Origin: Rhynchopus sp. YZ270_cl-10
Taxonomy: Eukaryota
Length of the DNA stretch: 64,000 nucleotides
Reading direction: 5' to 3'
Assembly (NCBI GenBank): GCA_964035575.1
Contig: OZ037840.1
Location: 930,001-994,000, forward strand
The translations under genes were made by a program, and so were the position numbers. Positions within the stretch are counted from its first letter, which is position 1, and each line of letters begins with the position of its first letter. Below the pieces are notes generated by a model, which was not told the origin of the DNA, searched no databases, and saw only the letters and a list, made by a program, of their open reading frames with translations. This document shows, piece by piece, positions 2,354-42,676 of this stretch.

Positions 2354-3931
2354 TAGGGGGTCCGACTCCCTAGTAAAATTTTGTCCGGTTTTCGTTTTTT
2401 TCAACATTCGGCCATTTCCCGGGCACCTCCGGGTGAATCCTGCCCCCAAAATAGGGTTTCTGGGCCCTGTGGGGCTAAATTCACCCTCTAGGTACCCCAA
2501 AATATGAAAAAAATTGAAAAATATGGTGAAAAATCGGGTTTTTGGCCTTTTGGGCACTATGTCCAGTTTTGACTAAATTTCCAAAAAAAAATCAAAAAAA
2601 GCCCCAAAAATAGACGAAAAAAGGAGTCTCTGGCCACAATTTCGGCCCAAAAATGTGTTTTGAGTCCATTGCAAACGGTTTTTCGCCTTTTCGCCACTTT
2701 TTTTGATGATTTTTTGGTGTTTTTAGGTGCAAAAACAACCCCAGAACAACCCCAGAACACTTTTCCACCACATTCTGGACCAATTTCTAGCCGAACTTTT
2801 TGCTGAAAACCGCCAAAAAACCACCCCTGTAAGTCAGATTATACCGAATGTTGCTCCAATTCCCACAATAACACCCAAATCTACGTCAGAAAATCGGAGA
2901 AAAAAAACACACTTTTTTCAAAAGGTCGTCAGGCAGGGTTCCACCCCAGAACAACCCCAGAACACTTTTCCACCACATTCTGGACCAATTTCTAGCCGAA
3001 CTTTTTGCTGAAAACCGCCGAAAAACCACCCCTGTGAGTCAGATTATACCGAATGGTGCTCCAATTCCCACAATAACACCCAAATCTACGGCAGAAAATC
3101 GGGGGGAAAAACACACTTTTTTCAAAAAGCTCATTATGGAACCCTGCCTGACGACCTTCTGAAAAAAGTGTGTTTTTCCCCCCCGATTTTCTGCCGTAGA
3201 TTTGGGTGTTATTGTGGGAATTGGAGCACCATTCGGTATAATCTGACTCACAGGGGTGGTTTTTCGGCGGTTTTCAGCAAAAAGTTCGGCCAGATATTGG
3301 TCCAGAATGTGGTGAAAAAGTGTTCTGGGGTTGTTCTGGGGTGGAACCCTGCCTGACGACCTTTTGAAAAAAGTGTGTTTTTTTTCTCCGATTTTCTGAC
3401 GTAGATTTGGGTGTTATTGTGGGAATTGGAGCAACATTCGGTATAATCTGACTTACAGGGGTGGTTTTTTGGCGGTTTTCAGCAAAAAGTTCGGCTAGAA
3501 ATTGGTCCAGAATGTGGTGGAAAAGTGTTCTGGGGTTGTTCTGGGGTTGTTTTTGCACCTAAAAACACCAAAAAATCATCAAAAAAAGTGGCGAAAAGGC
3601 GAAAAACCGTTTGCAATGGACTCAAAACACATTTTTGGGCCGAAATTGTGGCCAGAGACTCCTTTTTTCGTCTATTTTTGGGGCTTTTTTTGATTTTTTT
3701 TTGGAAATTTAGTCAAAACTGGACATAGTGCCCAAAAGGCCAAAAACCCGATTTTTCACCATATTTTTCAATTTTTTTCATATTTTGGGGTACCTAGAGG
3801 GTGAATTTAGCCCCACAGGGCCCAGAAACCCTATTTTGGGGGCAGGATTCACCCGGAGGTGCCCGGGAAATGGCCGAATGTTGAAAAAAACGAAAACCGG
3901 ACAAAATTTTACTAGGGAGTCGGACCCCCTA
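2354..3931. mobile_element. 1.58-kb near-perfect palindromic TIR element with TAGGGGG termini
   Basis: Arms of about 770 bp (2354-~3124 and ~3160-3931) are near-exact reverse complements; ORFs 2557..2760(-) and 3525..3728(+) are identical mirrors. Each arm has a ~190-bp internal tandem duplication. Flanked by C runs. Confidence 0.85.
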
Positions 3932-5115: not shown

Positions 5116-7388
5116 TATGTTTTTCACTTTTCTATTTTTTACTTTTATTTTATTTCTCTTTCTTGTGTGTTTGCTGAGGTTTTCTATCTGATACACAGAC
5201 AGGATGTGTTGGTATTTGTTTGGATTGGTAGCAATTATTGCACGGAATACTTTACGTATACACGGCAGCCATCAAGACCAAGACTCTTTAGGTTACTCTT
5301 CCTCCTGGTGATCAAACATTACATCCAGTAAGGACAGAGAAAGGAATAAGAAAAAAGAAAAAAAAAACTTTTGTATTTTGTGTATTCCCGAAACAAAAAA
5401 CTGAAGTAGAAGGTACCAAATGTTCACACGAACATCGGTTTCACGATATTCACCCACCATTTAAAGGGAAATCACTGAAGATGTCCACCCTTTTGAATAC
5501 AACTGTATGATTCTTAGGACTGAAACAGGGTTAATATCAGAAACCAATCTACTGAAGTTTCAACTTGTGCACGAAGCATTTTACTTTTCTTTTCTACGTT
5601 TTGCAAAACACACACCATAAAAAGAAAGATGGGACCATTTTTGTTGATCCCTCACCATATACTATCAATTTATTGATTGCATATGATGAAAATACTTTTT
5701 ATTTACAAGTGCCTCCAGACATGCTGTGAAAAACTGAGCCTCGCTTAGAGTATGTTGCGGAATGGTCTCTAGTACATTAGCCCTAAAAAGCTAAACACAT
5801 AGTGCAAACTAGTTTATATTTATAGATATATTCTACTGCTGCACTATGCTTTGTTTACTCATAATTACAAAGGAGTTAACAGAAAGTCGAAGCACACAAT
5901 ACAGCTGTCCTGTGAACTTCGCACTACACCCCACCCCCTCCCTACCTCTTTGAAACAGTCAAAAAAGAAATCAAAATAAAAAAAAAAAAAAAAAAAAAAC
6001 AGCAGAAAAAGAGACCAAAAAAAAAAATGATATAATAACAAGGGAGAGCAAGTAGGTTATTTAAAGTAGGTTGACGACACCGAAACCCCAATAAAAAAAA
6101 ATGTGTCCGTTTATGGTGTCAACGTTAAAGACTACCAGAAGCAGCTCAGTGCATTCTGAAAAAAATAAGCGAGCGATTCTAGGCTATATATGTTCATGAA
6201 GCCAATGAATCTAGATAAAGGTCCTATTTCAAAGAATTCCCACAAACAAACACCACTTTTATTTTTACTTTTTTTCAACAAACCAAATAAAAAGAAAAAA
6301 AAAACTCTTTTTCACCACTGGAAGGGACTAGACCTCGTACTTGACCCTTTCAGTGAGACGTCAGACCAATGTATTACATTGCCACACCCTGGGTAAGCTG
6401 TGCAGTCTGTAGGCCTACTACAAAAACCGCAAAACTTTGGAAAAAAAAAAGAACGAAGATAATAGGTATATCGCAGTAGTAATTTGGTCGTGGTTTACCA
6501 ATGGTAATGTCCACGACGCAGTTTATATGGTTGTACTCAACGCGTACTATGTCACTAGTGATGAGTATTTTTCTCGCAGGAGCGATTTGGTCTTGGTGGG
6601 CATCTTAGCTTTCCCATTTTTAAAGGGACAATAGCCTTGAGACTAAGACTCCAGGACACATATTAAATTGTTTGCAATGCACGTTTTGCTATCTCTTTGT
6701 ACTACTCTAGTCTTTGTGTAGGTGTTTCAATACAATGGACAATGGATGATTAAACTGGTTTTAATCATTGCTTGGACGGCGAACTACTAAGTCCAGAAAA
6801 TTCAGTATGTTTTTCACTTTTCTATTTTTTACTTTTATTTTATTTCTCTTTCTTGTGTGTTTGCTGAGGTTTTCTATCTGATACACAGACAGGATGTGTT
6901 GGTATTTGTTTGGATTGGTAGCAATTATTGCACGGAATACTTTACGTATACACGGCAGCCATCAAGACCAAGACTCTTTAGGTTACTCTTCCTCCTGGTG
7001 ATCAAACATTACATCCAGTAAGGACAGAGAAAGGAATAAGAAAAAAGAAAAAAAAAACTTTTGTATTTTGTGTATTCCCGAAACAAAAAACTGAAGTAGA
7101 AGGTACCAAATGTTCACACGAACATCGGTTTCACGATATTCACCCACCATTTAAAGGGAAATCACTGAAGATGTCCACCCTTTTGAATACAACTGTATGA
7201 TTCTTAGGACTGAAACAGGGTTAATATCAGAAACCAATCTACTGAAGTTTCAACTTGTGCACGAAGCATTTTACTTTTCTTTTCTACGTTTTGCAAAACA
7301 CACACCATAAAAAGAAAGATGGGACCATTTTTGTTGATCCCTCACCATATACTATCAATTTATTGATTGCATATGATGAAAATACTTT
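5116..7388. repeat. ~583-bp direct repeat pair (5116-5698 and 6806-7388)
   Basis: Apparently identical sequence at offset 1690. Diverged partial copies at ~10880-11045 and ~19110-19368. Confidence 0.85.
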
Positions 7389-8321: not shown

Positions 8322-10490
8322 ATGGGGTGGCTTGAGAGCGTGCTGTCGCTGGATGGGACGCTTGACAAGAATGAGCGTAAGAAGCGGACGCTGTTTTTGC
8401 TGTTCATGTCTGTGTCGTCGGTATTTTTCCTGGTGTATATGGCGTTGTTCATCTATGTCAGCTACAGTACTGAGCTGCGTGGGATCGCGATGGGTGCGCT
8501 CTTCATCGAGATAGTGGTCACCATATACGTCATGATTCAGGTCTTTTGCAAACGTCCGCTTGTGGAGCGACTCGTTCTGTGGATAGGCCTGAGCCTCTCA
8601 TTAACAGTGTTCTGCATCGACCTGACGGCAAGGAGCATATCTCAAACCTCGTGGCCTGCTCTTGTGCTTGTGGTGGACTTCTTCCTTGTGATGCAGGTGA
8701 ATGATCGGATTGTATCCATACTCGTGGTGACGACCATATGCTACCTTGTCGTCATGGCGTTCGAAGACGTCTTCAGGTTCGGAATCTTCGATCTGCCAGG
8801 CCTCATCCCACAGGAGGGTGCGTTAGGGAGGAAGGAACACCTGCGTAGGATGACAGACTGCTCGACCCCTCCCTGTGCCGTGCCGGCGAACCTGGCCGCT
8901 GAGAATCTTCTGTCCTCGGTAGTGGTATTTGTTCTGGACTTCATCGCAACGAGAGGCTTCGCTCGCACCCTCCTAAAAGAGCAGGCAGCAATGGAGAGAA
9001 CGATCAGTGTGGTGCAGGAGATTGCGAGTCTGCTTGCCAAGTACGATGTGGAAGGTGTGGCGGAGATGCTGAAGGTGCAAAGGGACGAGCTCCCAGAGGA
9101 GATGCACGCAACACTGCGGAGGATGGAGGAGAACCTGCGGAAGTACCGTCCCTACCTCCCTGCAGCGCTGTTTGAGGAGGAGGGTGGTGTGCCAAGCGCG
9201 TCTGTGCCGCCACCTGTGCTTGAGAACGATGTGGGAACGATTGTCTTTACAGACATCCGTTCGTCGACGTCGATCTGGGAGTGTGCGCCAGAAGGGATGT
9301 GTGCTGCGTTGAAGATCCACAACGCTGTGATGCGTGAGGTGATGCAGGTGTTTGGTGGGTACGAAGTGAAGACAATCGGCGACGCCTTCATGGTTGCCTT
9401 CGCATCAACAGCTGACGGTGTGAACTTTGGCCTGAAGGTGCAGGAACGTCTTCGTGAAGCAAACTGGCCTGCGTCGCTGCTTGAGGAGGCACCGATCTGT
9501 GCTGAACAGGGCTCACTTTGGGGTGGACTGACTGTGCGCATTGGTGTGAACAGTGGTCCTGTGACTGTGGAGCAGAACACACTGACGGGACGGACAGACT
9601 ACTTTGGACACACGGTGAACGTTGCGTCACGTCTTGAGAGTGTGTGCACGCCAGGAGCTGTTGCTGTACTTTCTGACCTGTGGACTTCTGTCTGTGGGTT
9701 GTGCAGTGCTGTTGCTAGTGAGGCTGAAGCACTTGACTTGAAGGGTGTGTCACAGCCAATGTTTGTGCGTTGCTTGTGGCCTGCTTCACTTGCGCGTCGA
9801 GCACACAACCCTCTTGCTGATGTGGACATGCGTGCACACTCACTGAGCGTGTCTATCAAGGGACGCAGGATGTCAATAGATAATACACCGCTGTCGTCAT
9901 CACAGGGCTCAGCTGGGTCAGAGTGCGCAACTCCAGCCCTGCTGTCAGAGTGCGCAACTCCCAAGCTGCGCTCACAGCTGGGTCGTCGGGTGACCGGCAC
10001 TGTTGGTGTTGTGGACATTGAAGTGGGTGACGAATCTTCCCTGAAATCACTGTACGCAATGAACGCAGGACTTGCAACACTCACGATTGCACTGGAGCAG
10101 AGCGGTGGGAGCCTGGTGACGCTGCTTGGGAGCTGTGTGTGCGTTGGGTGGAACGTGACCCGTTCGGCACCTGCACACATGGAGAACGCGGTGCGGTTTG
10201 CACAACGGATGATGGCGAAGACTGCGTACTTCAAGGGTGCTGGCGTTGTGAGTGGTCCTGTGCAGCACGGGGACATTGGCAGCCACAAACAACGCTTTGT
10301 GACAGTGTTGGGGCACATTGTGCGACGGAGCTGGACGCTGTGTGAAGAAGCTGTGCGTGAGGGGGGCACATGCCTTTACGAACCCGACAGCACAACACTG
10401 CCGTCTGCACTTGAAGACACTCTTGTGCAACACAAGGGTGGTGGCTACAGAGTGGTTCAGGAGAGCAGGGACAGAGTGGAGTGCATTTGA
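8322..10490 (+). CDS. Multi-pass membrane class III adenylate cyclase, copy 1 (722 aa)
   Basis: Hydrophobic N-terminal helices, then TIVFTDIRSST, YEVKTIGDAFMVAF and DYFGHTVNVASRLES (both metal Asp, ATP-specifying Lys/Asp, and Asn/Arg). A degenerate second cyclase-like domain lies at the C-terminus. Confidence 0.92.
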   Translation: MGWLESVLSLDGTLDKNERKKRTLFLLFMSVSSVFFLVYMALFIYVSYSTELRGIAMGALFIEIVVTIYVMIQVFCKRPLVERLVLWIGLSLSLTVFCIDLTARSISQTSWPALVLVVDFFLVMQVNDRIVSILVVTTICYLVVMAFEDVFRFGIFDLPGLIPQEGALGRKEHLRRMTDCSTPPCAVPANLAAENLLSSVVVFVLDFIATRGFARTLLKEQAAMERTISVVQEIASLLAKYDVEGVAEMLKVQRDELPEEMHATLRRMEENLRKYRPYLPAALFEEEGGVPSASVPPPVLENDVGTIVFTDIRSSTSIWECAPEGMCAALKIHNAVMREVMQVFGGYEVKTIGDAFMVAFASTADGVNFGLKVQERLREANWPASLLEEAPICAEQGSLWGGLTVRIGVNSGPVTVEQNTLTGRTDYFGHTVNVASRLESVCTPGAVAVLSDLWTSVCGLCSAVASEAEALDLKGVSQPMFVRCLWPASLARRAHNPLADVDMRAHSLSVSIKGRRMSIDNTPLSSSQGSAGSECATPALLSECATPKLRSQLGRRVTGTVGVVDIEVGDESSLKSLYAMNAGLATLTIALEQSGGSLVTLLGSCVCVGWNVTRSAPAHMENAVRFAQRMMAKTAYFKGAGVVSGPVQHGDIGSHKQRFVTVLGHIVRRSWTLCEEAVREGGTCLYEPDSTTLPSALEDTLVQHKGGGYRVVQESRDRVECI

Positions 10491-11591
10491 TGACAGTTGC
10501 GATATATCAGTTTGGTTTTGACTAAAGTGTCCCCGATTATCTTTACCCGCAAATAATAGATATTTTCCCAAATAACTGTTTTTTCCCCAGTACATTTTCC
10601 CCCTTTGGAGGCTGCGTTCAATGCAATCATTTGTGCAGAATAGTTAGAAGATGTATATTATTTCCCATGTTCCCCATGTCACTCACACACATTACATACA
10701 CATCAGGAAAATTGTGACTGAGTGTGGGGATGCGTTCACGAATTAAACTCTACCCCTAATCCCCGTGTCGTCTTCAGTTTTCTTTATTCAACGGCAAGTG
10801 GATGCGTAATAATTTTGCTTTTTTTTTATTTTGCTTTTGTTTCTCCTGTTTCTTGCTTCTGTGAAATACTTATTCTGTGTGTGGTGATGTTTTCTATATG
10901 ATACACAACCGGGATGTGACTGGTCTTTGTTTGCATTGGTGGCAATTATTGCACGAATACTTACGTATACACGGCAGCCATCAAGAGTAAGACTCTTTTG
11001 GTGGCCCTTTCTCCTGGTGAGCAGAGACATATCCCGTTAGGACTGCTCCACGTAGCTGCTGCAGCGCTCACATTTCGCATTTCTTGTTTTGAGACTGAGA
11101 GTACATGTTGTGCCACTTTGTAGCGTGGTATGCGTTGTGAATTAATCGTCCCTCCCCATATTTCTTGCAAAAACGGAGGGGGTAAAAAAGTGATCGGGGG
11201 AAAGAAGCGCTGTAATGAGCACTTTTGTTTTCGTGTTCTGTTCTGTTGATGTACCCGAAGAAGATCTGTTTGTCAAAATAGGAACGACGTAAATTGCTGA
11301 CCCCCCCTGCTTTTTTGCACAGTTTGCAAAACTATCTTGCTTGTCGTTATCTTTTGTGGTTAACATAAAACTAAATGCCTTTTTCGGCAAAGAAAAAGAC
11401 AAAATCCAAGAATCAAGAACCGAGGATAAAACCAAAACGGTAATGAAGCTTGCAAAATGATAGTGGAGGTTTTTTCGTAATGTTTTATTCTCCCCGATTT
11501 TTAAAGACCAGGGGATATTAGTATGCCGGTGTGCCGGTGTGGCCACACCGGAAAAGCCGGTGTGGGATTTTGAGGAAAAAAAAGAAAAAGT

Positions 11592-11629
11592 CCAACGATT
11601 TCTAAAGCTACAGTTTCTGTACTTCATTG
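11592..11629 (+). other. Genomic copy (relic) of the euglenozoan spliced-leader exon
   Basis: CCAACGATTTCTAAAGCTACAGTTTCTGTACTTCATTG contains the conserved ACAGTTTCTGTACT core and ATTG end of kinetoplastid/diplonemid SL exons. The 5' part resembles the diplonemid SL as recalled from memory. It is not followed by a GT donor or SL intron. Confidence 0.85.
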
Positions 11630-11713
11630 GGAGGACACAGTGAATCAAGAATTAACCCTGAGCACATCCCAACTGCTCCCCCCCTCCCCCCAAATAAGCC
11701 ACCCCCCTCCACG

Positions 11714-13807
11714 ATGGGGTCCTCTGGACAGCAGACGATGAAGAAGGCTGACGAAGAGGTGGCAGGGGCGATGTGGAGACCCCGGGCTGAGGACTTTCCA
11801 GACAGCCGACTCGCAGCCAACTTGGCTGATTTTAAGAAAAACGGAGGCATCCTGTGGTGCAGCCGTAAGGAAGTGCAGGAAGCGCTGCAGAAGCCGCAGC
11901 ACGCGCACACGGCAGGGGTACTCGTAGCCCCGGCCGACAAACCACAGGGGTTGGCGGCCCCACTGATCTCCCTCGTGACGGTGCGGGGGGAGGAGATGAG
12001 GACGGAGCGCCGGTTCCTGTGCTCAGTCAGCACCGTACAGGCGGTGCACAAGACGGCGGATGCAAAGCAGCACCAGGGGGCATTGCCCCAAACCAAATAC
12101 GTTGTGGTGGAAAGCCGCAACAGCGTGACCCGTGCCGCAGCATGTGCATGGGTGAAGGCACACGGAGGCGAGGTGCAGGCCGCCGTGGAGCTGAAGGCGA
12201 AGAAGGGGAAGCCAGCCGCAAAGACGGCGGCTTTTAAGATTGGAGTAGACGGCGCGCAGGTGAAGGACGTGCTGGCAGGAAGCGGCGATGACGGCTTCTT
12301 CGCCAGGCCGTTCTTCACCAACGGGTCGGGACGGGGTGGCGACCGGGTGACGCCGCTACCGAGCACAGTGAACCTGGAGACGGCGCGGAACCAGGCCACC
12401 GAGCTGAGCGGGCGAGTGGTGCTGCTGTCGCGGGGCGGACTCGGCGTAGCGGTTCCGGAAGGCACCACACAGGAGCAGGCCAGCAAGGTGTTGGGCGAGC
12501 AGGGGAAGACGAACCTCTGGGCAGAGATGTGGGTGGTGGACGGGCTGCCTCTCTCGCTGTCGAAGAACGGAGTGCGGGCAATCCTGAGCGAGCAGCACGC
12601 GTGGGAGCCGGAGTTGGTGAGGACCGGCAAGCACGGCACGCACAGGGTGCTTCTCGTCCGGGGCGCACCGCCGGGGACGCTGAAGCCGGTAGTGGTGGGG
12701 GAGGACGTGCTGACCTTCCGTCGGTACGACCGTACCAAAGAAGGGTGGCTGTTTGACGCCGCAAATAAAAAAGGAAAAGGAAAAGAGGAAGGAAGGGCGG
12801 CACAGCAGGACTACGTGCCCAAGCCCTACGTGGCAGACCCCGCACAGGACGCCGAGGTGGAGAAGATGCGTCGGGAACTCCTGGAGGCGAAGGAGAGAGA
12901 AGATGCACTGCGGGCAGAGAAGGACGAGATGCAGCAGACGCTGCAACACATGGCGAGCCAGCTGGACCAGCTGATGACGGAGATGCGCGACCTAAAGCTA
13001 CAACAGCGACGCACCGAACCGGAAGAAGAAGAAGAAGAAGGAGAAGGCGAGATGCAAATCGATGAGGAGGTGAAGGTGACGGCACCGCCGAAGAAGGAGA
13101 CGAAGGCGAAGAAGGAACCCACGCAAACTCAGGAGCGGAAGCAACAGCAGCAACAACAGCAGCAGCGGCAACAACAGCAGCAGCGGCAGCAACAGCAGCA
13201 GCGGCAGCAACAACAGCAGAGGCAACAACAACAGCAACGCGAACAGAGAGAAGAAGCAGAAGAACGGCTGCAGGCACAGAGGCGGCAGGAAGAGACGGAC
13301 CGCCGCCGTGAATTCGACACTGCAGAGGCGGAGAGGGCAGAAGCGAAGGCACGCGAAGAAGCACAGTGGCAGGAGTATAACGAAATCCTGAAGAAGACAC
13401 GCCAGGAGGAGTTGGCCGAGGAGAAGAGGAGGAACGCATTCGCCTCAGCAGAAGCGAAACGGCTGGCGAAGGAGGCAGTGCTGCAAGAGGCCGAAGCCTC
13501 TTACGAGGCTTTTTTAAAAAAAAAGCGGGAAACAGAGCGAGAGGAGGAGATGGATCTCGCGACAGCGGCAGCACTGGTGCGCCAGGAGGAGGAACGCCAG
13601 CTGAAACGTGCGAGGGACGTCCTCCACGCAGAAGAACGCCGCCTCCGCATGGGCTTGACGCCACCCAAGCAGCTGAACAGGGGGAAGAGAGCGGAGCGGG
13701 ACGAACGTGACCGTGCCACCCCCAAGAACACACGACGGATCTTAGCGACGACGCCCTCCCCCTCGCCAAGGAAAGAGAAAGAGAAGCGCCGCAGCATGCG
13801 GTACTGA
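11714..13807 (+). CDS. LINE ORF1 (~697 aa): globular N-terminal half, coiled coils, poly-Q/(QQQQR) tract, basic C-terminus
   Basis: Long GC-rich ORF directly upstream of the APE region; first ATG at 11714, 84 nt after the SL relic. No CCHC knuckles seen. Confidence 0.75.
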   Translation: MGSSGQQTMKKADEEVAGAMWRPRAEDFPDSRLAANLADFKKNGGILWCSRKEVQEALQKPQHAHTAGVLVAPADKPQGLAAPLISLVTVRGEEMRTERRFLCSVSTVQAVHKTADAKQHQGALPQTKYVVVESRNSVTRAAACAWVKAHGGEVQAAVELKAKKGKPAAKTAAFKIGVDGAQVKDVLAGSGDDGFFARPFFTNGSGRGGDRVTPLPSTVNLETARNQATELSGRVVLLSRGGLGVAVPEGTTQEQASKVLGEQGKTNLWAEMWVVDGLPLSLSKNGVRAILSEQHAWEPELVRTGKHGTHRVLLVRGAPPGTLKPVVVGEDVLTFRRYDRTKEGWLFDAANKKGKGKEEGRAAQQDYVPKPYVADPAQDAEVEKMRRELLEAKEREDALRAEKDEMQQTLQHMASQLDQLMTEMRDLKLQQRRTEPEEEEEEGEGEMQIDEEVKVTAPPKKETKAKKEPTQTQERKQQQQQQQQRQQQQQRQQQQQRQQQQQRQQQQQREQREEAEERLQAQRRQEETDRRREFDTAEAERAEAKAREEAQWQEYNEILKKTRQEELAEEKRRNAFASAEAKRLAKEAVLQEAEASYEAFLKKKRETEREEEMDLATAAALVRQEEERQLKRARDVLHAEERRLRMGLTPPKQLNRGKRAERDERDRATPKNTRRILATTPSPSPRKEKEKRRSMRY

Positions 13808-13915
13808 CTGTTGTGTCTGGTGTTGCTGTTGGTGTGGTTAATGCTGGATAGTGTGCTGCTGCTGCTACTGCCTTTTTTGCTTCCGTACAAGTGGAAGACC
13901 CACGCACACCCAAGG

Positions 13916-14761
13916 ATGACTCATCAACACCACTCAGGTCGACCGAACACCGACCCCACACTCGACAAGACCTCCTCCACCATCAAGAGCAACCAACTGC
14001 TAGAGGACGGCATCGAGCCTGAGCCAGGACCAGAGCCAGAACCAGAGCAAGGACCAAAACCAAGAACCCTTCGCTGCATGAGTTGGAATGCGGGGGGGCT
14101 GACGGGCCCGAAGAAAGGGGAGCTGAAGCAGGTCCTGGAGAAGGAGAAGTACGATGTAGTACACCTCCAAGAACTCATGGCGGCGCAAACGGGCAAGCTG
14201 AACTTTGACGGGTACAGGACTTTCCTGCGGGTGCGAACGGTAGCTCGAAAAAAAGACACCAGCGAGACGCATGGGGGAGGGATTGCGACACTGGTGAAGA
14301 AGAACTTGCGTGCGACAGAACAACCCTTCGAAGCGTGGGAGACCACAGAGAGGCTGGATGTGATTGTGGAGGGCGTGCTCTTCACGAATGTGTACCGGCC
14401 GAGCGGGGTGGGTCTACAGAAGGGGGACCAGAGAGAGGATGACTTCGCAACGCAGGATCTGCCAACGGGAGAGGGCTGCGTGATCGCAGGGGACATCAAC
14501 GCACATCACCAGGCGTGGAGTCAGGCGAAAATCCCCAACCAAACGGGAACTGACCTACACGACTGGGCGTTGGGGAACAACATGCGATGCTGGAACAAGA
14601 AGGAAGCAACGCGGATCCAGCGCGGTACCAAAACGTCACCAGATGTGGTCTTCGCAGACAGAGACTGGGCCGACCCCATATGGCAAACACGGGAAACGCT
14701 CAACTCCGACCACCTGCCGATAGAGTTTGAAGTGCAAGCGAACACCTCCAACACATCCTGA
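13916..14761 (+). CDS. LINE ORF2 part 1: 2A-like motif plus APE endonuclease (start uncertain; frame open from 13808)
   Basis: APE motifs SWNAGGL, VVHLQE, GGGIATLV, NVYRP, IAGDINAHH, SPDVVF and SDHLPI. Ends at TCC-TGA. Confidence 0.85.
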   Translation: MTHQHHSGRPNTDPTLDKTSSTIKSNQLLEDGIEPEPGPEPEPEQGPKPRTLRCMSWNAGGLTGPKKGELKQVLEKEKYDVVHLQELMAAQTGKLNFDGYRTFLRVRTVARKKDTSETHGGGIATLVKKNLRATEQPFEAWETTERLDVIVEGVLFTNVYRPSGVGLQKGDQREDDFATQDLPTGEGCVIAGDINAHHQAWSQAKIPNQTGTDLHDWALGNNMRCWNKKEATRIQRGTKTSPDVVFADRDWADPIWQTRETLNSDHLPIEFEVQANTSNTS

Positions 14762-17700
14762 GGTGAAACTCAAAAAAGAGCTGTGGAACTGGAAGAAGGC
14801 GAACTGGGCAGGCTTCACCAAGGAGATGGAGCGCAGTTCGCCAGACGCAATGAAGTGGGGCTCGATCAGCACCGCAGCAGCCAAGTGGGCAGGGATGGTG
14901 AAGAACATCGCGAGGAGGCACATACCCAGAGGCAAGGCAAGGAAGAAGAAGCGACGCTGGTGCAACGGTGCGGTGAAGAAGGCCCAGAAGCAACGAGACA
15001 GAGAACTCCGCAGACAGCAGAAGGAGGAGACCCTGACCGTGGCCGACGGGGACGCACTCACGGAACTCCGGCGGCAGACGGCCAATGCGATACGGAAGGC
15101 GAAGAGAGAGGTGTGGGAGGACAAGTGCACCAAGGCAGTAGCAACCTCCGGGGCCTTCAGGCTGCTGCGCGAGTTGGACGGACGGGCGGACAAGGCGCAG
15201 TCGTACCCCATAAAAGTGAAAAAAGAGGGACAACAGGAAAAACAACAGCTCTCCACCAACAAGGAGAAGGCGGACGCACTGGGGGAGCACTACTGCAGCG
15301 TGAGTGACGGCACAGGCCTACCGGATGCGGAGCAGCAAACTACGGCAGGATCCCAAGGAGCTGAAGCACCCCTGACACTGGAGGAGCTGGACGCCGCACT
15401 GAACGTCCTAGAAGCAGGAAAGTCACCTGGAGCGGATGGGATACACAACGAGATGTTGATGCACCTCGGACCCGCCGCAAAAAAAGGGCTTCTACATGTG
15501 ATGAACCTCTCGTGGAAGCAGGGGCAACTACCCAAAGAATGGAAGAAGGCCATACTTTTCCCTATCCACAAACAAGGGAAGCCAGAGGAAGACCTCGAAT
15601 CCTACCGGCCGATAGCCCTGACGAGTACCGTGAGTAAGGTGATGGAACACGTGCTAGCGAACAGACTGCTCCAGCTGATGGAAGACCCAAACGAGGCCAC
15701 ACAGAACCTACATCCCAAACAGACAGGATTCAGACGCTTCCGTTCCGCCGTGGACAACTTGGCCTACATCACGCAGCTGGCTAAGGACTCCGCAGCGAAG
15801 AAAGAAGTCCCCATCATTCTGACGCTGGACCTCGACAAGGCCTACGACAAGGTTAAACGGGGGAAAATTCTGGAAAGGCTCCACCAACACCAGGTACCAG
15901 AGCGATACATCAGGTGGCTCACGGATTACCTGAAGCACAGAACGGCAAGGACAACGGTGGAAGGAACACGGAGCGAGGAATACGTGATGCGGGAGGGTGT
16001 TCCCCAGGGCACAGTGCTCTCACCACTGCTGTTCAATCTGGTGATGACGGAGGTGGCAGAGATCCTGGAAGGAACGACGGCCCACTTCTGCATCTTCGCT
16101 GACGACCTGGCCATCATGTGTACGGAGCGCACACTGGAGGAAGCAACAGCGGCGATACAGAAGGTCCTTACACTGCTAGAGGAACACCTCCCCAAACTTG
16201 GATTCACGATATCCCGCAGGAAAACCTTCGTGATGCCAGTGACCGAGAAGGGCGATCGTGCCGACATCAGAAAAGCTAAGTGCGAAGTGAAGTACGCAGA
16301 CGGAGCAGTGGTGAACCGTGCGCAGACGGTCCGTTACCTGGGGGTGGAACTGGATGACGCGCTGACGATGCAACCACAACTAGCGGCGGTGAAGACAAAG
16401 TTCCTCAAAAAACTTTCTCTGATCCAGCTCATGGCTGGACGGGACTGGGGGTGCGATGCCCACATGCTGAGACAGGTGTACATGACGTACGTGCTCCCGA
16501 CCATAACGTATGCACTGGCGGTGTGGGGACCAGCGCTAAATGAGGCAGGCCTTGAAACTCTGGAAGTACTCCACCGAAGGGGGGCGAGGGTCATCACCGG
16601 GTGTAACTACTACACCAAAGCAGAGGACCTACTCTGGGAAGCTCACCTGAGGAAGATACGAGAGCACGTCGAATACGATGCAGCAGCCCTGTACGAACGT
16701 GCACGTCGACAACTGGAGACCCCAGCAGAGTGTGCAATGCATTCAAGCGATACGAAACTGACTTGGTTACGGTCGGCGAAGGACACAGTGGAACAGACGA
16801 AGATGTACCGCCACGACCAACCAGCGATGTCCCAGACACACTACCCGGTGGCACCCTGGCGCTGGAAGGAGGTCCTCCCCAAGGTCGACATCCGGCCCTA
16901 CGTGGCTGGCTTCAAGAAGGGCACGCAGACGGACGCAGAGGCGAGAAGCTTGACAGAGCAGACCATCGCAGAGCTGCCACCAGCGGACCTTCACGTCTAT
17001 ACAGACGGGTCGGTGGAAGGCGGACGAGGCCACGGGGGTGCAGGCATTGTGGTCTACCCGGGAGACAGCGACAAAGAAATAGCGACAGCCAACGTCGGAG
17101 CAGGGCGGATGAGCATATCGTACACCGCCGAGCTGGTGGCCATCAGAGAGGCACTTCCGATGGTGGAGGAACTGCACCGCACAGACCACAAACACAACAC
17201 GGTGGTAATCCTCACAGACAGCCAGTCAGCACTACGTGCGTTGGAGACAGGTCCGGTGAAGGCTACGGGACTTCTCTGCGACGTGTGGTCGGCACTACAC
17301 CGGGCTACAACCAAGGTGCGGGTGATCATGCAGTACATCCCGTCACATGTGGGGGTGAGTGGAAATGAGGAAGCGGACCACGAAGCCAAGTTAGGTACGG
17401 CCACGTACCAAGCAGAACGGGCATCACAAAAAGGCCGCCTACAAGAGGAACCACTCACGCTCCTCGCGTGCAAAGCGGCGATACGCGCAGTCTGCTCCAG
17501 CTACACACCCCAACCGGCGAGCGAACTCTACAGCACGATCACGGCGGACACCCCGAAGGGAGTGGCGCGACCCAAGCTGAGCACACCGGAGCTCACGCGG
17601 CGGGGAGCAGTGCAGATGAGACTGCTGCGGACAGAGCGCCACCCTGCGCTGTTCGACTACATGGGCAGCAACGACGTGGCACGCTGCAACAACTGCACGG

Positions 17701-17894
17701 CAAAAGCAAAGGCGACACTGAAACATATGTTCAAAGTGTGTTCAGCCACCAAGGCACTAAGGACAGACCTACTGCCAAACAAGTCGCTCAAGTTCTTACT
17801 GCTAGAGCAACCCCAGTTGTGCCTGAAGTACATCAGCGCGGCAAAACTGACAGAGGCCAGCCTGCCTGAACTCGTGCGGAGCAACACCTGCTGA
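14760..17894 (+). CDS. LINE ORF2 part 2: reverse transcriptase + RNase H + CCHC finger (+1 frame relative to APE)
   Basis: WNWKKANW linker, KSPGADGI, SYRPIALTS, LDLDKAYD, GVPQGTVLSPLLFN, FADD, YLGV. RNase H motifs VYTDGS, AELVAI, LTDSQSAL, IPSHVGVSGNEEAD. C-terminal CNNC..H..C. Confidence 0.93.
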   Translation, partial: EVKLKKELWNWKKANWAGFTKEMERSSPDAMKWGSISTAAAKWAGMVKNIARRHIPRGKARKKKRRWCNGAVKKAQKQRDRELRRQQKEETLTVADGDALTELRRQTANAIRKAKREVWEDKCTKAVATSGAFRLLRELDGRADKAQSYPIKVKKEGQQEKQQLSTNKEKADALGEHYCSVSDGTGLPDAEQQTTAGSQGAEAPLTLEELDAALNVLEAGKSPGADGIHNEMLMHLGPAAKKGLLHVMNLSWKQGQLPKEWKKAILFPIHKQGKPEEDLESYRPIALTSTVSKVMEHVLANRLLQLMEDPNEATQNLHPKQTGFRRFRSAVDNLAYITQLAKDSAAKKEVPIILTLDLDKAYDKVKRGKILERLHQHQVPERYIRWLTDYLKHRTARTTVEGTRSEEYVMREGVPQGTVLSPLLFNLVMTEVAEILEGTTAHFCIFADDLAIMCTERTLEEATAAIQKVLTLLEEHLPKLGFTISRRKTFVMPVTEKGDRADIRKAKCEVKYADGAVVNRAQTVRYLGVELDDALTMQPQLAAVKTKFLKKLSLIQLMAGRDWGCDAHMLRQVYMTYVLPTITYALAVWGPALNEAGLETLEVLHRRGARVITGCNYYTKAEDLLWEAHLRKIREHVEYDAAALYERARRQLETPAECAMHSSDTKLTWLRSAKDTVEQTKMYRHDQPAMSQTHYPVAPWRWKEVLPKVDIRPYVAGFKKGTQTDAEARSLTEQTIAELPPADLHVYTDGSVEGGRGHGGAGIVVYPGDSDKEIATANVGAGRMSISYTAELVAIREALPMVEELHRTDHKHNTVVILTDSQSALRALETGPVKATGLLCDVWSALHRATTKVRVIMQYIPSHVGVSGNEEADHEAKLGTATYQAERASQKGRLQEEPLTLLACKAAIRAVCSSYTPQPASELYSTITADTPKGVARPKLSTPELTRRGAVQMRLLRTERHPALFDYMGSNDVARCNNCTAKAKATLKHMFKVCSATKALRTDLLPNKSLKFLLLEQPQLCLKYISAAKLTEASLPELVRSNTC

Positions 17895-18081
17895 GGAGAC
17901 GCCGGCCAAAACTTGAAACAATAAAGAAAAGAGAAAAAAAAACCACGAACAAAAAGCAAGCCCAGGACGTACCTGCGGCACCACGACCAGCGCAACTGAC
18001 GGTTGCGAAGACAAAACATGTGCGGAACGCCGTCTTCTACGAAGACGTGTGTTACACTTTCAAACATACTTTTTACTTTTC

Positions 18082-18156
18082 AAAAAAAAACAATAAAAAA
18101 ACAAAAAAAAATCAAAAAAAAAAAAAACAAAAAAAAAAAAAACAAAAAAAAACAAA
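18082..18156 (+). repeat. A-rich 3' tail of the LINE
   Basis: About 75 nt of A runs interrupted by single C/T, ~190 nt after the RT stop codon. Confidence 0.8.
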
Positions 18157-19370
18157 TCATTGCTTTTCCTTTTAATTTATAAAGTGCCCAGGCCCCGGGG
18201 GGCTTGGGTGCACTTTATAAATTTTTTTTTTATCATATTTTCTTTTTCCTTTTGACTCCGTGGTTAACCTCGTGTGAGGTTGCGCGGAGTTCGCAGTCAG
18301 GCCAGGGAGCCACGTAACAAGGCTCGACTGCCACATAGTGGGGGGAGATCTGTGCAGCCTGTATGTTCCCCCCGATTTTCGTGGTAAATGGGAGGCGCTT
18401 CCGTTTAACGGCAACCCACAAGAGTAGAACAACAACCAAACTTTTGAGAAACAGACGCCAATGAGACCTAGAGTCTCTCTTCTTACTTGTGTGCTACAGA
18501 CAAACATGACAACGCTAACCACGACTGCCACGGCAGAGCGGGGTCCCAAACGGTTCACTGGGGGGGATCCACATAGATACAGAAAACAAAAAATACGAAA
18601 GCAAGGAAGAAAACCAGTAAAAAAAAAAAAAAAAAAAAAAAAAAAGTCGGATTTTTGGATTTTTTCTGAATTGTATCTCCTCATACAAGGCTACAACCAA
18701 ATCTGTAGCGGTTTCGTATGTGCATGTGACCCCACCATAAAGACCATTCGGTCCGTTCAATCAAAAGAAATAGATGTTCGCAACTCATAAAAAAGTAGCG
18801 TACCGTGCAGCTAAAAATTACAAGCGGTAGCCCACAGCTCTACCCTACCTATGCCATAGTTTGGCTATAAAAGCGTGCGATTTTATGTCACAATTTTTGA
18901 AATTTTGCGTACCGTGGCTTCGCCAGAAAAGTTTTGGTGCCATATATGGTCAGACAAGGACGCGGAGGGGAAAGAGTTGTGGATGTCTCCGTCGGAAATG
19001 TGTGGGGGGGGAAAAAATCGCCTCACACCGGCTTTTTGGCTCACACCGGCTTTTTTTCAAAATTTCAAACTACTAATGTCCCCTGATAGAATGGAAAACA
19101 AACAAAAAAAAAAAAAACTTTTGTATTTTGTGTATTCCCTTACCAAAAAACTGAAGTAGAAGGTACCAAATGTTCACACGAACATTGATTTCACGACATT
19201 CACCCACCATATAAAGGCAAATCACTGAAGATGTCCACCCTTTCGAATACAACTGTACGATGCGTAATACTGAAACAGGGTTAATGCCAGAAACCCTATC
19301 TACGGAAGTTTCCACTTGTGCATGCAATAATTATTAGTTTAGTTTTCTTTTTCATGTTTTGCAAAACATA

Positions 19371-20204
19371 TCGGCCGCGTACATATGACGTCGCTTTTTG
19401 GGAAGAGCAGGCCCCCAAAAAGGGACCTGCTAAGTACACACCGCACACCGTCAGCGACGCGGAGAAGCGGCAGATGAATGAGGATAAGAAGAGAGGAAGA
19501 CGCTGGTGCTGGCGGAGATGCACGGGTGGGAGAGTGTTGAGAATGACGATGCGGAGCCCGCACGAAGCCCCAAGCGAGCGAAGAAGCGTTGCAAGCAGTG
19601 CGGCCGCTACGGGCACTTGGCGAAGACGTGCTCGCACGATGACTTCACCTTCGAAAATCACGACGCGTTTGCATGTTGCAATCTGTGCCCAATGTAACCT
19701 GATAAAGGCTTCCCATTCCCACTCACCCTTAGCAGCCGTGAAGGGTTTCTGGGATTTCTCTTGGTGTTGGCGTGTTGGCTCTCGGCCCTTATAAGGTTAC
19801 ATTGGGCACAGATTGCAACATGCAAACGCGTCGTGATTTTCGAAGGTGAAGTCATCGTGCGAGCACGTCTTCGCCAAGTGCCCGTAGCGGCCGCACTGCT
19901 TGCAACGCTTCTTCGCTCGCTTGGGGCTTCGTGCGGGCTCCGCTTCGTCATTCTCAACACTCTCCCACCCGTGCATCTCCGCCAGCACCAGCGTCTTCCT
20001 CTCTTCTTATCCTCATTCATCTGCCGCTTCTCCGCGTCGCTGACTTGCTTTCTGTGCTTTGTGTCGCACCAGTGATGTGCCCCAACTGTATTCCATCATG
20101 AGTACCCACCTTTTTTTTCATGAACCTTACGGTGTACTTATTACGTCGCTTTTTGGGTGCCCGCGGCCCCAAATAAGTACGCGACGTCATATTTACGCGG
20201 CCGG
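19371..20204. mobile_element. TA-flanked TIR element (pogo/Fot1-like derivative) with an internal inverted duplication
   Basis: TIRs (T/C)CGGCCGCGTA(C/A)ATATGACGTCGC match 22/24; TA at 19369-19370 and 20205-20206. Internal ~250-bp inverted repeat (19450-19700 / 19794-20044) encodes CKQCGRYGHLAKTC. Confidence 0.75.
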
Positions 20205-22277: not shown

Positions 22278-23841
22278 TAGGGGCCGCAGTCCCCTAAGGA
22301 AATTGTGTAAGATTAATTCATTTTGCCACTTTTTGGCGTATAATGGCCACAACCTGCAGGGAACCACCCCAAAATAGGTCAGAAACACCCTGTGAGGCAA
22401 AATTGGGTGAAAATTTGACTCTAGAATGTGAAAAAATGGGAAAAAATAGCAAAAAACTGGCTTTTTGGGGGTTTTGGCCATTTTGACCAAAACCCCGATT
22501 TTTCATGAAAAAAACATAAAAAAACACCAAATTCGATGTTTCAGAGAGTCATTTAAGCCCTATTTTGCCCCAAAAATGTGTCTTGAGTCCATTCTCGCCT
22601 GTTTTTCACATTTTTACGCCTTTTCTTTGGTGAATTTGGCCAAAATTTGGTCAAAATGACCCCCTGTCCACCCCCTGTGTACCCCCTGTCCAAGGCCAGG
22701 ATTTTTCCCCTGGCCATCACATAAAGTAGGGTATGGTTCAAATTTTGGTACGTACCCCCCCAAAAAATGGTCTGCGGACCCAACGGAACCGGTTTTTTAC
22801 CCTTTGGAGGCCTCTGGCGGCCCTAATTTGGCATTTTTTAGCCCAAAACCGACCCTACCCCCCTCTCTGGGGAGGAGGGCAATTTTTGACTCATTTTCCC
22901 TATTTCTAGTGCTTCTAAGTCCTCCAAAGGGTAAAAAACCGGTTCCGTTGGGTCCGCAGACCATTTTTTGGGGGGGTACGTACCAAAATTTGAACCATAC
23001 CCTACTTTATGTGATGGCCAGGGGAAAAATCCTGGCCTTGGACAGGGGGTACAGGGGGTGGACAGGGGGTCATTTTGACCTCAAAACACCAAAAAGCGGC
23101 CAAAAAAAGTACCCAAAGTGTCCAAAACAGGTCGGAATGGACTCACAGGACATCCCTGGGGTAGTTTTGTGTCCAGGCAGCTGTCATGATGTCGAAATTT
23201 TACAAATTTTTTTGAAAATTTGGTCAAAAATGGTCGTTTGTCCCAAAATGGCCCAAATGGCCGATTTGTGCTTCAGGCCTTGGCGAGGCCGACTCGGCCT
23301 CGTTGCATTGTATGAAAAAAGGACACATTTTTGCCATACTATACATATTTTTTTGGTTCCTCCCATTTTTTGTGCAATTTTTCGTGTTTTTTTGCATTTT
23401 TTTTGCATTTTTTTGACCAAAACTTAGCGAAACTTAGTGAAACTTAGCAAAACTTAGTGAAACTGAGTGAAAATTTGCTGAAAATAACCCCAACAAAACC
23501 ATTTCTTGAGCGGAATACCCCCCTGTATGGGTAATTGTGGTTGAAAATAGGTGCCTAGAACATGTTCTGAGTGGTTTTGGGGGTGAAATAGCCCCAAATA
23601 CCCCCACAAAGCAAAAAATATGCCAAAATTGGCCATTTTGCCCCAAATGGCCAAAAGGGCTGAAAATCCTATTTTTTCACACTTTTTTCACTTTCTGAGG
23701 TGCCAAACCATGAAATTCTGGGTCACACTGCCCTGGAAACCTATTTTGGGTGTCAGACACACCCTGAGGTGCCCACTAGATGCCCAAAAAATGGCAAAAT
23801 AATTAATCTTACACGATTTCCTTAGGGGACTGCGGCCCCTA
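22278..23841. mobile_element. TAGGGG-ended TIR element (hAT-like) inserted in a C run
   Basis: TIRs TAGGGGCCGCAGTCCCCTAAGGAAAT../..ATTTCCTTAGGGGACTGCGGCCCCTA, with C8 on the left and C12 on the right. Internal ~160-bp inverted repeat 22649-22810 / 22921-23080. Confidence 0.8.
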
Positions 23842-24339: not shown

Positions 24340-26475
24340 ATGGGGTGGCTTGAGGGCGTGGTGTCGCTGGATGGGACGCTTGACAAGAATGAGCGTAAGA
24401 AGCGGACGCTGTTCTTGCTGTTCATGTCTGTGTCGTCGGTATTTTTCCTGGTGTATATGGCGTTGTTCATCTATGTCAGCTACAGTACTGAGCTGCGTGC
24501 GATTCTGATGAGTGCGATCGTTATCGAGATAGTTGTGACCATATACGTCGTGATTCATGTCTGCTGCAAACGTCCGCTTGTGGAGCGACTCATTCTGTGT
24601 ACAGGTATTAGCATGTCCTTAACAGTGTTGTGCTCGGACCTGACGGCGAGGACAATATCGCAAACCAGGTGGCCTGCTCTTGTGCTTGTGGCAGACTTCT
24701 TCCTTGTGATGCAGGTGAATGATCGGATTGTGTCCATACTCGTGGTGACGACCATATGCTACCTTGTCGTCATGGCGTTCGAAGACGTCTTCAGGTTCGG
24801 AATCTTCGATCTGCCAGGCCTCATCCCACAGGAGGGTGCGTTAGGGAGGAAGGAACACCTGCGTAGGATGACAGACTGCTCGACCCCTCCCTGTGCCCTG
24901 TCGGCGACAGAGGCCAGTGAGAACATTCTCTTGTCGCTACTTGTATTTATTGTAGACTTCATCACAACCAGAGGCTTTGCTCGGAGTATCCTGAAGGAGC
25001 AGGCAGCAATGGAGAGAACGATCAGTGTGGTGCAGGAGATTGCGAGTCTGCTTGCCAAGTACGATGTGGAAGGTGTGGCGGAGATGCTGAAGGTGCAAAG
25101 GGACGAGCTCCCAGAGGAGATGCACGCAACACTGCAGAGGATGGAGGAGAACCTGCGGAAGTACCGTCCCTACCTCCCTGCAGCGCTGTTTGAGGAGGAG
25201 GGTGGTGCGCCAAGCGCGTCTGTGCCGCCACCTGTGCTTGAGAACGACACGCGAACGATTGTCTTTACAGACATCCGTTCGTCGACATCGATCTGGGAGT
25301 GTGCGCCAGAAGGGATGTGTGCTGCGTTGAAGATCCACAACGCTGTGCTGCGTGAGGTGATGCAGGTGTTTGGTGGGTACGAAGTGAAGACAATCGGCGA
25401 CGCCTTCATGGTTGCCTTCGCATCAACAGCTGACGGTGTGCACTTTGGCCTGAAGGTGCAGGAACGTCTTCGTGAAGCAAACTGGCCTGCGTCGCTGCTT
25501 GAGGAGGCACCGATCTGTGCTGAACAGGGACCACTTTGGGGTGGACTGACTGTGCGCATTGGTGTGAACAGTGGTCCTGTGACTGTGGAGCAGTGCTCTC
25601 TGACGGGACGGACAGACTACTTCGGACACACTGTGAACGTTGCGTCACGTCTTGAGAGCACATGCACGCCAGGAGCTGTAGCAATACTTTCTGACCTGTG
25701 GACTTCTGTCTGTGGGTTGTGCAGTGCTGTTGCTGGTGAGGTTGAAGCACTTGACTTGAAGGGTGTGTCACAGCCAATGCGTGTGCGTTGCTTGTGGCCT
25801 GCTCCACTTGCGGGGCGAGCACACAACCCTCTTGCTGATGTGGACATGTCTGCACACTCAGTGGCCATGTCTATAGGTGGATGCGGGATGTCAGTGAAGT
25901 CACTTGGGTCATCATCTCGTAGCTCGCAGGGGTCAGAGTGTGCATCTCCCATGCTGCGCACACAGCTGTGCCAAGTGATCGGCACTGTCGGTGTTGTGGA
26001 CATTGAAGTGGGTGACGAATCTGCCCTGAAAGCACTGCACACAATGAACGCAGGACTTGCAACACTCACGATTGCCCTGGAGCAGAGCGGTGGGAGCCTG
26101 GTGACACTGCTTGGGAGCTGTGTGTGCGTTGGGTGGAACGTGACCCGTTCGGCACCTGCACACATGGAGAACGCGGTGCGGTTTGCACAACGGATGATGG
26201 CGAAGACTGCGTACTTCAAGGGTGCTGGTGTTGTGAGTGGTCCTGTGCAGCACGGGGACATTGGCAGCCACAAACAACGCTTTGTGACAGTGTTGGGGCA
26301 CATTGTGCGACGGAGCTGGACGCTGTGTGAAGAAGCTGTGCGTGAGGGGGGCACATGCCTTTACGAACCCGACAGCACAACACTGCCATCTGCACTTGAA
26401 GACACTCTTGTGCAACACAAGAGTGGTGGCTACAGAGTGGTTCAGGAGAGCAGGGACAGAGTGGAGTGCATTTGA
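24340..26475 (+). CDS. Membrane adenylate cyclase copy 3 (711 aa)
   Basis: Same TM + cyclase + degenerate cyclase architecture with intact catalytic motifs. Confidence 0.92.
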   Translation: MGWLEGVVSLDGTLDKNERKKRTLFLLFMSVSSVFFLVYMALFIYVSYSTELRAILMSAIVIEIVVTIYVVIHVCCKRPLVERLILCTGISMSLTVLCSDLTARTISQTRWPALVLVADFFLVMQVNDRIVSILVVTTICYLVVMAFEDVFRFGIFDLPGLIPQEGALGRKEHLRRMTDCSTPPCALSATEASENILLSLLVFIVDFITTRGFARSILKEQAAMERTISVVQEIASLLAKYDVEGVAEMLKVQRDELPEEMHATLQRMEENLRKYRPYLPAALFEEEGGAPSASVPPPVLENDTRTIVFTDIRSSTSIWECAPEGMCAALKIHNAVLREVMQVFGGYEVKTIGDAFMVAFASTADGVHFGLKVQERLREANWPASLLEEAPICAEQGPLWGGLTVRIGVNSGPVTVEQCSLTGRTDYFGHTVNVASRLESTCTPGAVAILSDLWTSVCGLCSAVAGEVEALDLKGVSQPMRVRCLWPAPLAGRAHNPLADVDMSAHSVAMSIGGCGMSVKSLGSSSRSSQGSECASPMLRTQLCQVIGTVGVVDIEVGDESALKALHTMNAGLATLTIALEQSGGSLVTLLGSCVCVGWNVTRSAPAHMENAVRFAQRMMAKTAYFKGAGVVSGPVQHGDIGSHKQRFVTVLGHIVRRSWTLCEEAVREGGTCLYEPDSTTLPSALEDTLVQHKSGGYRVVQESRDRVECI

Positions 26476-41696: not shown

Positions 41697-42676
41697 CGGT
41701 AAAAAAAGAGGGTTTCGTCAGTTGCGATTTTCTTTTTTCCAGCAGATGATTAAATGTCGTTTTTATCGGAAAAGGGGGGTGTTTTTTTGGGGGGTGGCTA
41801 GACATTTATTTTTATTTTTATTTTTACGCACCTTTTTTATGAGCTGAAGAAGAAAAGAAAAAAAGCACTTTTTTTTGATCCCTGCCCCGTAAAAACCCTG
41901 AAAAAAATGCGACCAAAAAAACATGACAGTGGAGATTGCACAAACTGTGGCAACACTACCGAGGCAACTACCACTACTCCAACAATTTATCAAAAAAAAG
42001 TTTAAAACAAAAAACCAGAGTTGAGTACGATGTGCGTCCACCTCTGGCGGGCGCACTTCGGCACGTGCCTGTCAGATGCCTTGCCCTGATTGATCTTCCC
42101 AGTAACTAGCGAATGCTGAGTTAAAAAAAACGAACGATAGTGGAGCGTCGTCCTAGGGAGTCAACGTATTATAGAACAATGTTTTCACAGACGAAAAGGA
42201 GAAGGTCCTTTCGCCACTCCTAGTAATATTTTGAGCACAGAAAAACCACCTCCTTGGTGGGGCTTCATCCTGCCTTATCGGTAAGAACAATCAGACGAAG
42301 AATGGTGTCCATTGTTTTCTATTTGTCCCCTCCACCGGAGGTGACTGAGAACGTGGACTTGAGCCTTCTGAGCTTTTCTCTTTTTGTTTCTTTTTTGTTA
42401 TTTATTTTTACGCATGCATAAAATATATTATTGCTTGACTGGACTGCTTTCCTCACAATGTAGCTTTCAACTGCCATGGAAAAAATACAATACAAAAATG
42501 GTGTGGCTCAAACCCCCAAGTGCACCAAAATAATCATAAAAGAAGTACAAAATGCACTTTTGGAGGGTTAAAAAAAAAATCGGGTTTTCTAAGCACATGC
42601 AGTGCTAAGTAAAATAATTGAAAAATGCTCCAGCTAGTTTTTTGCGTTGGAAGCTCGGAACGCAAAAACGTCCGAG

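Follow-up and report, generated by a model that had tools for sequence, protein, structure and literature searches.

Results

The locus and its features

The window, i.e., the whole 64-kb stretch of DNA analyzed here, contains a LINE-type retrotransposon that is inserted in a short non-autonomous element and is headed by a host spliced-leader (SL) exon. The features of the insertion and its target are as follows, in order of position.

11509..11592, + strand: hAT-like non-autonomous element (MITE), left-hand portion; this is the insertion target; terminal CAGGGG; a second copy is 74% alike
11585..11592, + strand: left target-site duplication AAAAAGTC, the longest junction-flanking direct repeat
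11592..11629, + strand: spliced-leader exon relic; exact match in the SL gene of metagenome locus L085, which has a GT donor
11630..11763, + strand: predicted HDV-like ribozyme, from a descriptor search; predicted cut 5' of G11630
11714..13807, + strand: ORF1, 697 aa, an open reading frame with its ATG inside the predicted ribozyme core
13841..14761, + strand: 5' part of ORF2, APE endonuclease (PF14529, PF03372); 99.3% identical to residues 16-301 of a sibling protein, P0001
14724..17894, + strand: 3' part of ORF2, reverse transcriptase (RT) and RNase H (PF00078, PF00075); 99.7% identical to P0001 residues 303-1352
18082..18156, + strand: tail of 75 nt, A-rich (89% A) and patterned
18157..18618, + strand: extra segment, 462 nt, beginning with TCATTG, the hexamer that also ends the SL
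18619..18645, + strand: pure A27 tail closing the insertion, its last 5 A shared with the right duplication
18641..18648, + strand: right target-site duplication, the same direct repeat
18649..19085, + strand: hAT-like element, right-hand portion, with terminal CCCCTG; its continuation agrees in 12/15 bases with another MITE copy

APE and RT domains, a poly(A) tail and a target-site duplication, i.e., the properties of an APE-type non-LTR insertion, are all found together here.

Identity of the spliced-leader relic

The 38-mer at 11592-11629 is a host SL exon. It is unique in the window, where the next-best match has 16 mismatches, and it occurs exactly in the SL gene of locus L085, where AA stands before it and GTATGG, with the GT donor, comes after it. 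The original prediction that the 38-mer is a spliced leader was thus borne out. Its description of the junction also agreed with the coordinates: the 3' end of the 38-mer is followed by GG, not GT, and the ORF1 ATG (11714) lies 84 nt downstream. Judging from the flanks in L085, the complete SL exon is likely 40 nt long, in which case the relic would retain 38 of the 40, or one fewer (37) should C11592 be part of the duplication, and would lack the first 2-3 bases.

When metagenome loci were scanned with an SL-core pattern, one of the 132 hits had the C variant of this SL; a related SL variant was found at contig ends in 99 matches. By eye, about three differences separate the SL from the consensus 'Euglenozoa 14' of PMC3795323. 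The SL exon had no match near the gathering score in Rfam. In the public run X1, 1200 contigs fell on 11300-12300, with depth concentrated at the 38-mer, many different sequences following it, and a loose end that resembles an adapter; in run X7, the 38-mer continued into G plus TATGG in 17 contigs. From these contig patterns, we infer that X1 is RNA-like and X7 DNA-like.

A separate observation was made in DNA of other origin. Complete related SL exons without a following GT were found in loci L123-L126, all on one IMG/VR contig of 237,777 nt (match at 1501-1525 of each locus), and in L057, L061, L110 and L119; they lie 27-68 nt before an ATG, and an A-run plus (T)TGA motif is located about 15-20 nt upstream of the SL exon in all eight such loci. 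All four SL matches from the viral collection are in the one contig. The motif resembles the early promoter of Mimiviridae, so the host SL may be encoded ahead of the genes of a large virus that infects diplonemid-like organisms. Three proteins downstream of such SL exons had no Pfam family above the cut-off, and no paper on an SL encoded ahead of viral genes was found in the open-access literature.

Boundaries of the insertion, its target and its tails

The inserted DNA is bounded by the 8-bp direct repeat AAAAAGTC, the copies of which enclose the SL, the LINE, the 75-nt A-rich tail, the 462 extra bases and the A27. On its own, the repeat is a 2% event, as GTC follows 7 of the 322 runs of at least five A in the window; since the duplication starts with A5 directly after the A27, the repeat and the pure tail together fit a poly(A)-primed insertion. 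The continuity of the target on the two sides, described below, backs these boundaries. The original prediction had placed the end of the element at an A tail. An A-rich tail is indeed present at 18082-18156; the insertion, however, runs on to the A27, 462 nt further. The same prediction had offered TCATTG as an alternative, short target-site duplication. This motif does recur at 18157-18162, with a chance of 1.8e-4 per position, or about 1e-3 with a few offsets allowed; as the outer duplication it is displaced by AAAAAGTC, and it was kept as part of a rival explanation of two nested insertions (see below).

As the inner tail is patterned and the outer tail pure, the segment between them is likely a 3' transduction, and the inner tail is likely that of the source copy. 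L1 3' transductions resemble this extra segment. Of the first 20 nt of the segment, 12 are T, a content matched by 4.9% of local non-coding 20-mers and by none of 99 SL-exon starts, these being from related organisms, not the host (132 matches minus 33 that were internal, in SL genes, in tandem SLs or too short). A search for an ORF longer than 52 aa in the segment found none. With its T-rich start and no such ORF, it resembles flanking DNA and not an mRNA in its own right. Its source had no match in the JGI contigs, and no other copy lies in the window.

The target was identified by repetition: 11509-11592 matches a second MITE copy at 53966-54046 (74%) and many contigs in X1, X4 and X7, and it also matches the right end of the element (19085) once that end is reverse-complemented. 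We take the element to be hAT-like from its terminal CAGGGG/CCCCTG motif. An 8-bp duplication flanking the MITE itself was looked for and not found. Another MITE copy in X4 allowed a view of the empty site, in that its sequence past the A-tract agrees in 12/15 bases with 18647-18661 and in 4/15 with the SL side. This continuity rules out that the SL pre-existed in the MITE, and it answers the check, proposed earlier, of whether a LINE-free MITE holds the 38-mer: the empty-site copy does not. Residence in an SL gene repeat, the other check of this kind, was also contradicted, as an SL intron was sought downstream of both tails and not found, the flanks being MITE.

The surroundings contain other features. 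The flanks 10870-11043 and 19088-19368 are contiguous in two paralogous spacers (5160-5610 and 6850-7300), which indicates that about 8 kb (11044-19087) is inserted DNA relative to these spacers; of this, 11044-11508 is further, unexplained inserted DNA, with a separate repeat at 11422-11495. A tandem family of membrane proteins of about 700 aa is encoded at 8322-10490, 24340-26475, 26764-28890, 29543-31666 and 32862-34697, the first with an adenylate/guanylate cyclase domain. Long near-perfect inverted repeats (arms of 779, 260 and 141 nt) and an inverted 10-nt tandem array at 2354-3931, 19450-20044, 22673-23058 and 42664-43488 are likely elements of the foldback or MITE type. At 61278-61329 there is another A-rich, patterned tail, preceded by TTTTC as at the LINE 3' end and ending in AAAAAGTC; it is possibly the end of a further retroelement.

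A predicted ribozyme at the spliced-leader junction

A predicted HDV-like ribozyme begins with G11630, the base directly after the SL; its parts, all on the + strand, were assigned by the descriptor as follows.

11630-36/11719-25, +: P1, 7 bp, first pair G.U
11698-703/11758-63, +: P2
11705-07/11716-18, +: P3, with L3 at 11708-15
11726-27, +: P1.1, CC/GG
11729-32/11747-50, +: P4
CGAA with C11752, +: J4/2

The region thus has the double-pseudoknot pairing potential (P1, P1.1, P2, P3, P4) and the J4/2 cytosine of this class. The descriptor, which was composed after the motif had been noticed, matched none of 5000 dinucleotide shuffles of 11630-11930 and nothing in 10 shuffled windows; the real window gave two matches in total, the second (55713) having poorer, AT-rich helices. 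Substitutions listed among near-identical copies of the LINE fall outside the ribozyme helices. The minimum-energy fold of the region lacked P1, the method being unable to show pseudoknots, and Rfam returned no match near the gathering score. The descriptor also found no match in 122 other SL-bearing loci. Overall, 11630-11763 is a predicted HDV-like ribozyme. HDV-like ribozymes of L1Tc/ingi cut 5' of the +1 base (PMC4035085, PMC3185411). The original prediction had set this LINE apart from those elements in a way that implied the lack of a ribozyme, which is contradicted by a predicted one that starts exactly at the SL junction.

Proteins of the LINE and their relatives

A frameshift near 14740, relative to P0001, splits ORF2 of the window copy into its two parts. 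P0001 is a 1353-aa sibling ORF2 with 99.3-99.7% identity to the window copy; its cluster has 30 members, and a length of 1353 aa was recorded for 7 of the 15 members listed. These lengths and identities indicate a young LINE family with intact copies. The closest named relatives of ORF2 among the matches listed were from Rhynchopus humris (37%) and Diplonema ambulator (31%), which makes a diplonemid the likely host, and a named ingi protein was absent among the 120 ORF2 matches listed. The ESM Atlas returned only unnamed APE-RT-RNase H clusters, and the Pfam search assigned ORF1 to no family.

Other copies of the family in public runs

The flank upstream of 11630 was displayed in three runs (X3, X4, X5), and in all three it consisted of an A-run, a C-run and A, never the SL; the three runs are three studies, one of which is perhaps the window's own source. 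The X1 contig reaches 6 letters into this flank. The coverage of X7 and X8 omits 11630-11691, and these two runs carry no weight in the comparison. In X2, with 8 of 22 records displayed, the main contig begins exactly at 11630, which means that at least two upstream forms meet there. Three X2 contigs extend over the ends of the stretch, two of them at the 3' end, there were no loose ends, and the four imperfect contigs are all accounted for; this indirectly implies that one X2 contig matches the SL plus three G exactly, perhaps from the same locus as in the window. The depth of that SL-joined contig is at most about 155 of about 1200 units, depth not being copy number, and the SL form is thus a minority.

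The A/C-run may belong to the element itself, or it may be a target that the copies have in common; in the former case, the ribozyme would not set the end of most copies. It carries, at the junction, an AG acceptor with a C tract, and the G of the acceptor is G1 of the predicted ribozyme. No SL-led LINE was found by tblastn in the 122 SL-bearing metagenome loci, which came from 20 of 64 parts scanned and were mostly up to 1500 nt long (43 of them about 300 nt). One X1 contig joins the SL (11629) to an AG inside ORF1 (11883), with a 21-nt side that was flagged as unreliable; in view of this short side, and of no matching loose end in X2, X5, X7 or X8, the joint was not counted as support. As a separate matter, X5 and X7 contigs depart from the element at 11809, 11835 and 11909 into other upstream sequence, in one case over 255 nt, which suggests that there are subfamilies in which both the 5' end and the start of ORF1 differ.

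Origin of the SL-headed copy

The SL identity, the insertion boundaries, the domain content and the non-SL flank of the other copies, all as described above, are what the sequences show. Several origins compete, and the odds that we attach to these are matters of judgement, not computation. To the reading that we prefer, we give an even chance: this LINE copy came from one insertion event, the template being a read-through RNA that was probably SL trans-spliced and polyadenylated. In favor of this reading, the SL is intact up to the precise end of the exon and short of no more than its first 2-3 nt, the MITE is continuous across the site without the SL, and other copies have an AG acceptor with a C tract at the junction; the duplication, the two tails, the extra segment and the predicted ribozyme, as described above, speak for it too. 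In this scheme, a source LINE copy would have been co-transcribed with its flanks, and host trans-splicing would have added the SL at the AG that adjoins the first G of the ribozyme, while poly(A) would have been added 462 nt beyond the element's own tail. The read-through RNA would have evaded self-cleavage by the ribozyme and been reverse transcribed by the protein of an intact sibling, or by its own before the frameshift, into the A-tract of the MITE, the reverse transcriptase halting 2-3 nt before the capped end. On transcription of the resulting copy, the predicted ribozyme would remove the SL, leaving daughters without it.

Several observations weaken the preferred reading. First of all, the SL-LINE junction in the window has three G, and splicing at the CA|G of other copies would give two, so that one must suppose either a source copy with one more G or slippage by a single base; non-templated bases are common at ribozyme-defined R2 5' junctions (PMC3774820). 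Secondly, the TCATTG after the inner tail becomes a coincidence. Thirdly, the A/C-run in three runs shows that sequence beyond the predicted cut is common, so that the end of most copies may be set by something other than the ribozyme, or they may have a target in common. The caveats on the ribozyme prediction given above count against the reading as well, and an SL-to-element RNA junction was not among the contigs displayed.

Appreciably less probable, and next in order, is the same single event with the SL joined without splicing, either by a switch of the reverse transcriptase to an SL RNA or an SL-capped mRNA, at the ribozyme-cut G11630 or at a TCATTG ending the source flank, or by ligation of the cut RNA to an SL fragment. 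A junction of exactly the complete SL and G1 of the ribozyme is what such joining predicts, and the third G needs no assumption; a source duplication of TCATTG would moreover offer 6 nt of microhomology and account for 18157-18162. When such microhomology is taken away, landing exactly on the end of the SL exon is improbable, and ligation would call for a free, ligatable SL exon, which is not known as a normal RNA species. There are precedents for these routes in two studies, namely, U6/L1 chimeras that arise by both (bioRxiv 2025.02.02.635956) and R2 5' junctions with non-templated bases and a putative template jump (PMC3774820).

Two nested events are an unlikely origin, in which an SL-capped, polyadenylated RNA of 456 nt was copied into the MITE with the AAAAAGTC duplication, and the LINE later entered at the end of the SL relic with TCATTG as a 6-bp duplication. 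The third G and the TCATTG at 18157 are both explained here free of coincidence. However, the LINE would have had to hit one base in about 500, and no preference for the SL is seen in the other copies, which are flanked by the A/C-run. The segment that would be the body of the mRNA is T-rich at its start, as were none of the 99 SL-exon starts from related organisms, and is non-coding; TCATTG lacks an initial A; and it is the outer tail that is the purer.

The original prediction was in essence that the LINE was copied from an SL-capped mRNA, host trans-splicing setting the 5' end. For this one copy, the idea is supported as far as the 38-mer is the SL and lies inside a duplication-bounded insertion, with no SL intron downstream and with none of the SL in the MITE at the empty site; for the family, it is not, given the A/C-run flanks in X3, X4 and X5, and its further step, in which each new copy loses its outron and needs a new acceptor, found no support. 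We therefore consider it highly improbable that trans-splicing sets the 5' end throughout the family with the SL routinely written into new copies: the window copy and the single X1 joint of 11629 to 11883 speak for it, against the three of three runs with a displayed flank that show the A/C-run and never the SL, the unreliability of that joint, and the minor share of depth of the SL-joined X2 contig. Likely, then, the SL-headed copy is an exception and not the family rule. Equally improbable is an assembly chimera or a one-base error at the junction, for although a G-run is error-prone and no displayed contig bridges 11600-11660, the duplication and the MITE continuity suit a real insertion and the X2 contigs indirectly imply one with the SL and exactly three G.

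A further proposal concerns the family at large and is offered tentatively, as its odds are rather poor. The trans-splice acceptor would overlap the predicted ribozyme cut, the G of the CAG being G1 of the ribozyme. Addition of the SL would thus swap G1 for the last G of the SL, capping the RNA for translation of ORF1 and leaving the ribozyme intact, while self-cleavage would strip the SL and restore the exact 5' end; SL-bearing copies would be the leak. If true, the LINE exploits host trans-splicing without losing a base.

Discussion

Comparison with known systems

The closest parallel is with the INGI LINEs (Tbingi, L1Tc; Pr77), which share with the window LINE the APE-RT-RNase H domains, poly(A), a duplication, an HDV-like fold at the first base (here a predicted one) and a euglenozoan host (PMC12278014, PMC4035085, PMC3185411). 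The APE-RT-RNase H order of INGI is indeed present here, and being common to other I-group clades, it is not diagnostic. Unlike INGI, the window LINE has a separate ORF1 (697 aa), and its predicted fold is 134 nt long with a 61-nt J1/2 and starts with G, whereas Pr77 is 77 nt and starts with C. The window LINE also has the SL at its junction, in contrast to an L1Tc RNA described as unspliced and to RIME/ingi cDNAs, 0/19 of which had the SL (PMC1874656). By analogy, the window LINE appears to work like an ingi/L1Tc-type element.

Three other systems share the position of the SL or the chimeric arrangement. Dinoflagellate SL-relict retrogenes are likewise retrocopies that begin, in the DNA, with a trans-spliced leader, and such relics are common there (PMC5585692); those copies, however, are host genes mobilized by an element that is not known, whereas here the passenger is a retrotransposon with its duplication, tail and transduction visible. 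The U6/L1 and mRNA/L1 chimeras of mammals similarly place a cellular RNA 5' of a LINE within a single duplication, the routes being ligation, template switching or, as a proposal, trans-splicing (bioRxiv 2025.02.02.635956); in contrast to these, the window LINE is 5'-complete to the predicted ribozyme cut, and its partner is the SL exon. Retrotransposons of the CRE clade (SLACS, CZAR, CRE1/2) also adjoin SL sequence in euglenozoans. They have a restriction-like endonuclease and are located in SL RNA genes (PMC12278014), whereas the window LINE has APE and lies in a MITE; membership in that clade was rejected on these grounds, the flanks being MITE with no SL intron downstream.

The accessible text of the Diplonema papillatum genome paper (PMC10161547) lists LINE, SLACS and other elements without a junction analysis. 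Searches of the open-access literature found neither an SL-bearing copy of a LINE nor an HDV-like ribozyme from a diplonemid.

Significance

The accepted view of ingi/L1Tc elements in trypanosomes is that they escape trans-splicing and thereby keep their 5' ends, and the SL-headed copy is notable against their RNAs, which are reported to be SL-free. A single frameshifted copy carries little weight alone. Nonetheless, the near-complete SL together with poly(A) and a duplication indicates that copying by the LINE enzyme can come as close as 2-3 bases to a capped end, which is the step needed for SL-tagged retrogenes. The proposed overlap of the AG acceptor with the predicted ribozyme cut, should it hold, would bear on how uncapped, ribozyme-ended LINE RNAs are translated in an organism where every mRNA is SL-capped.
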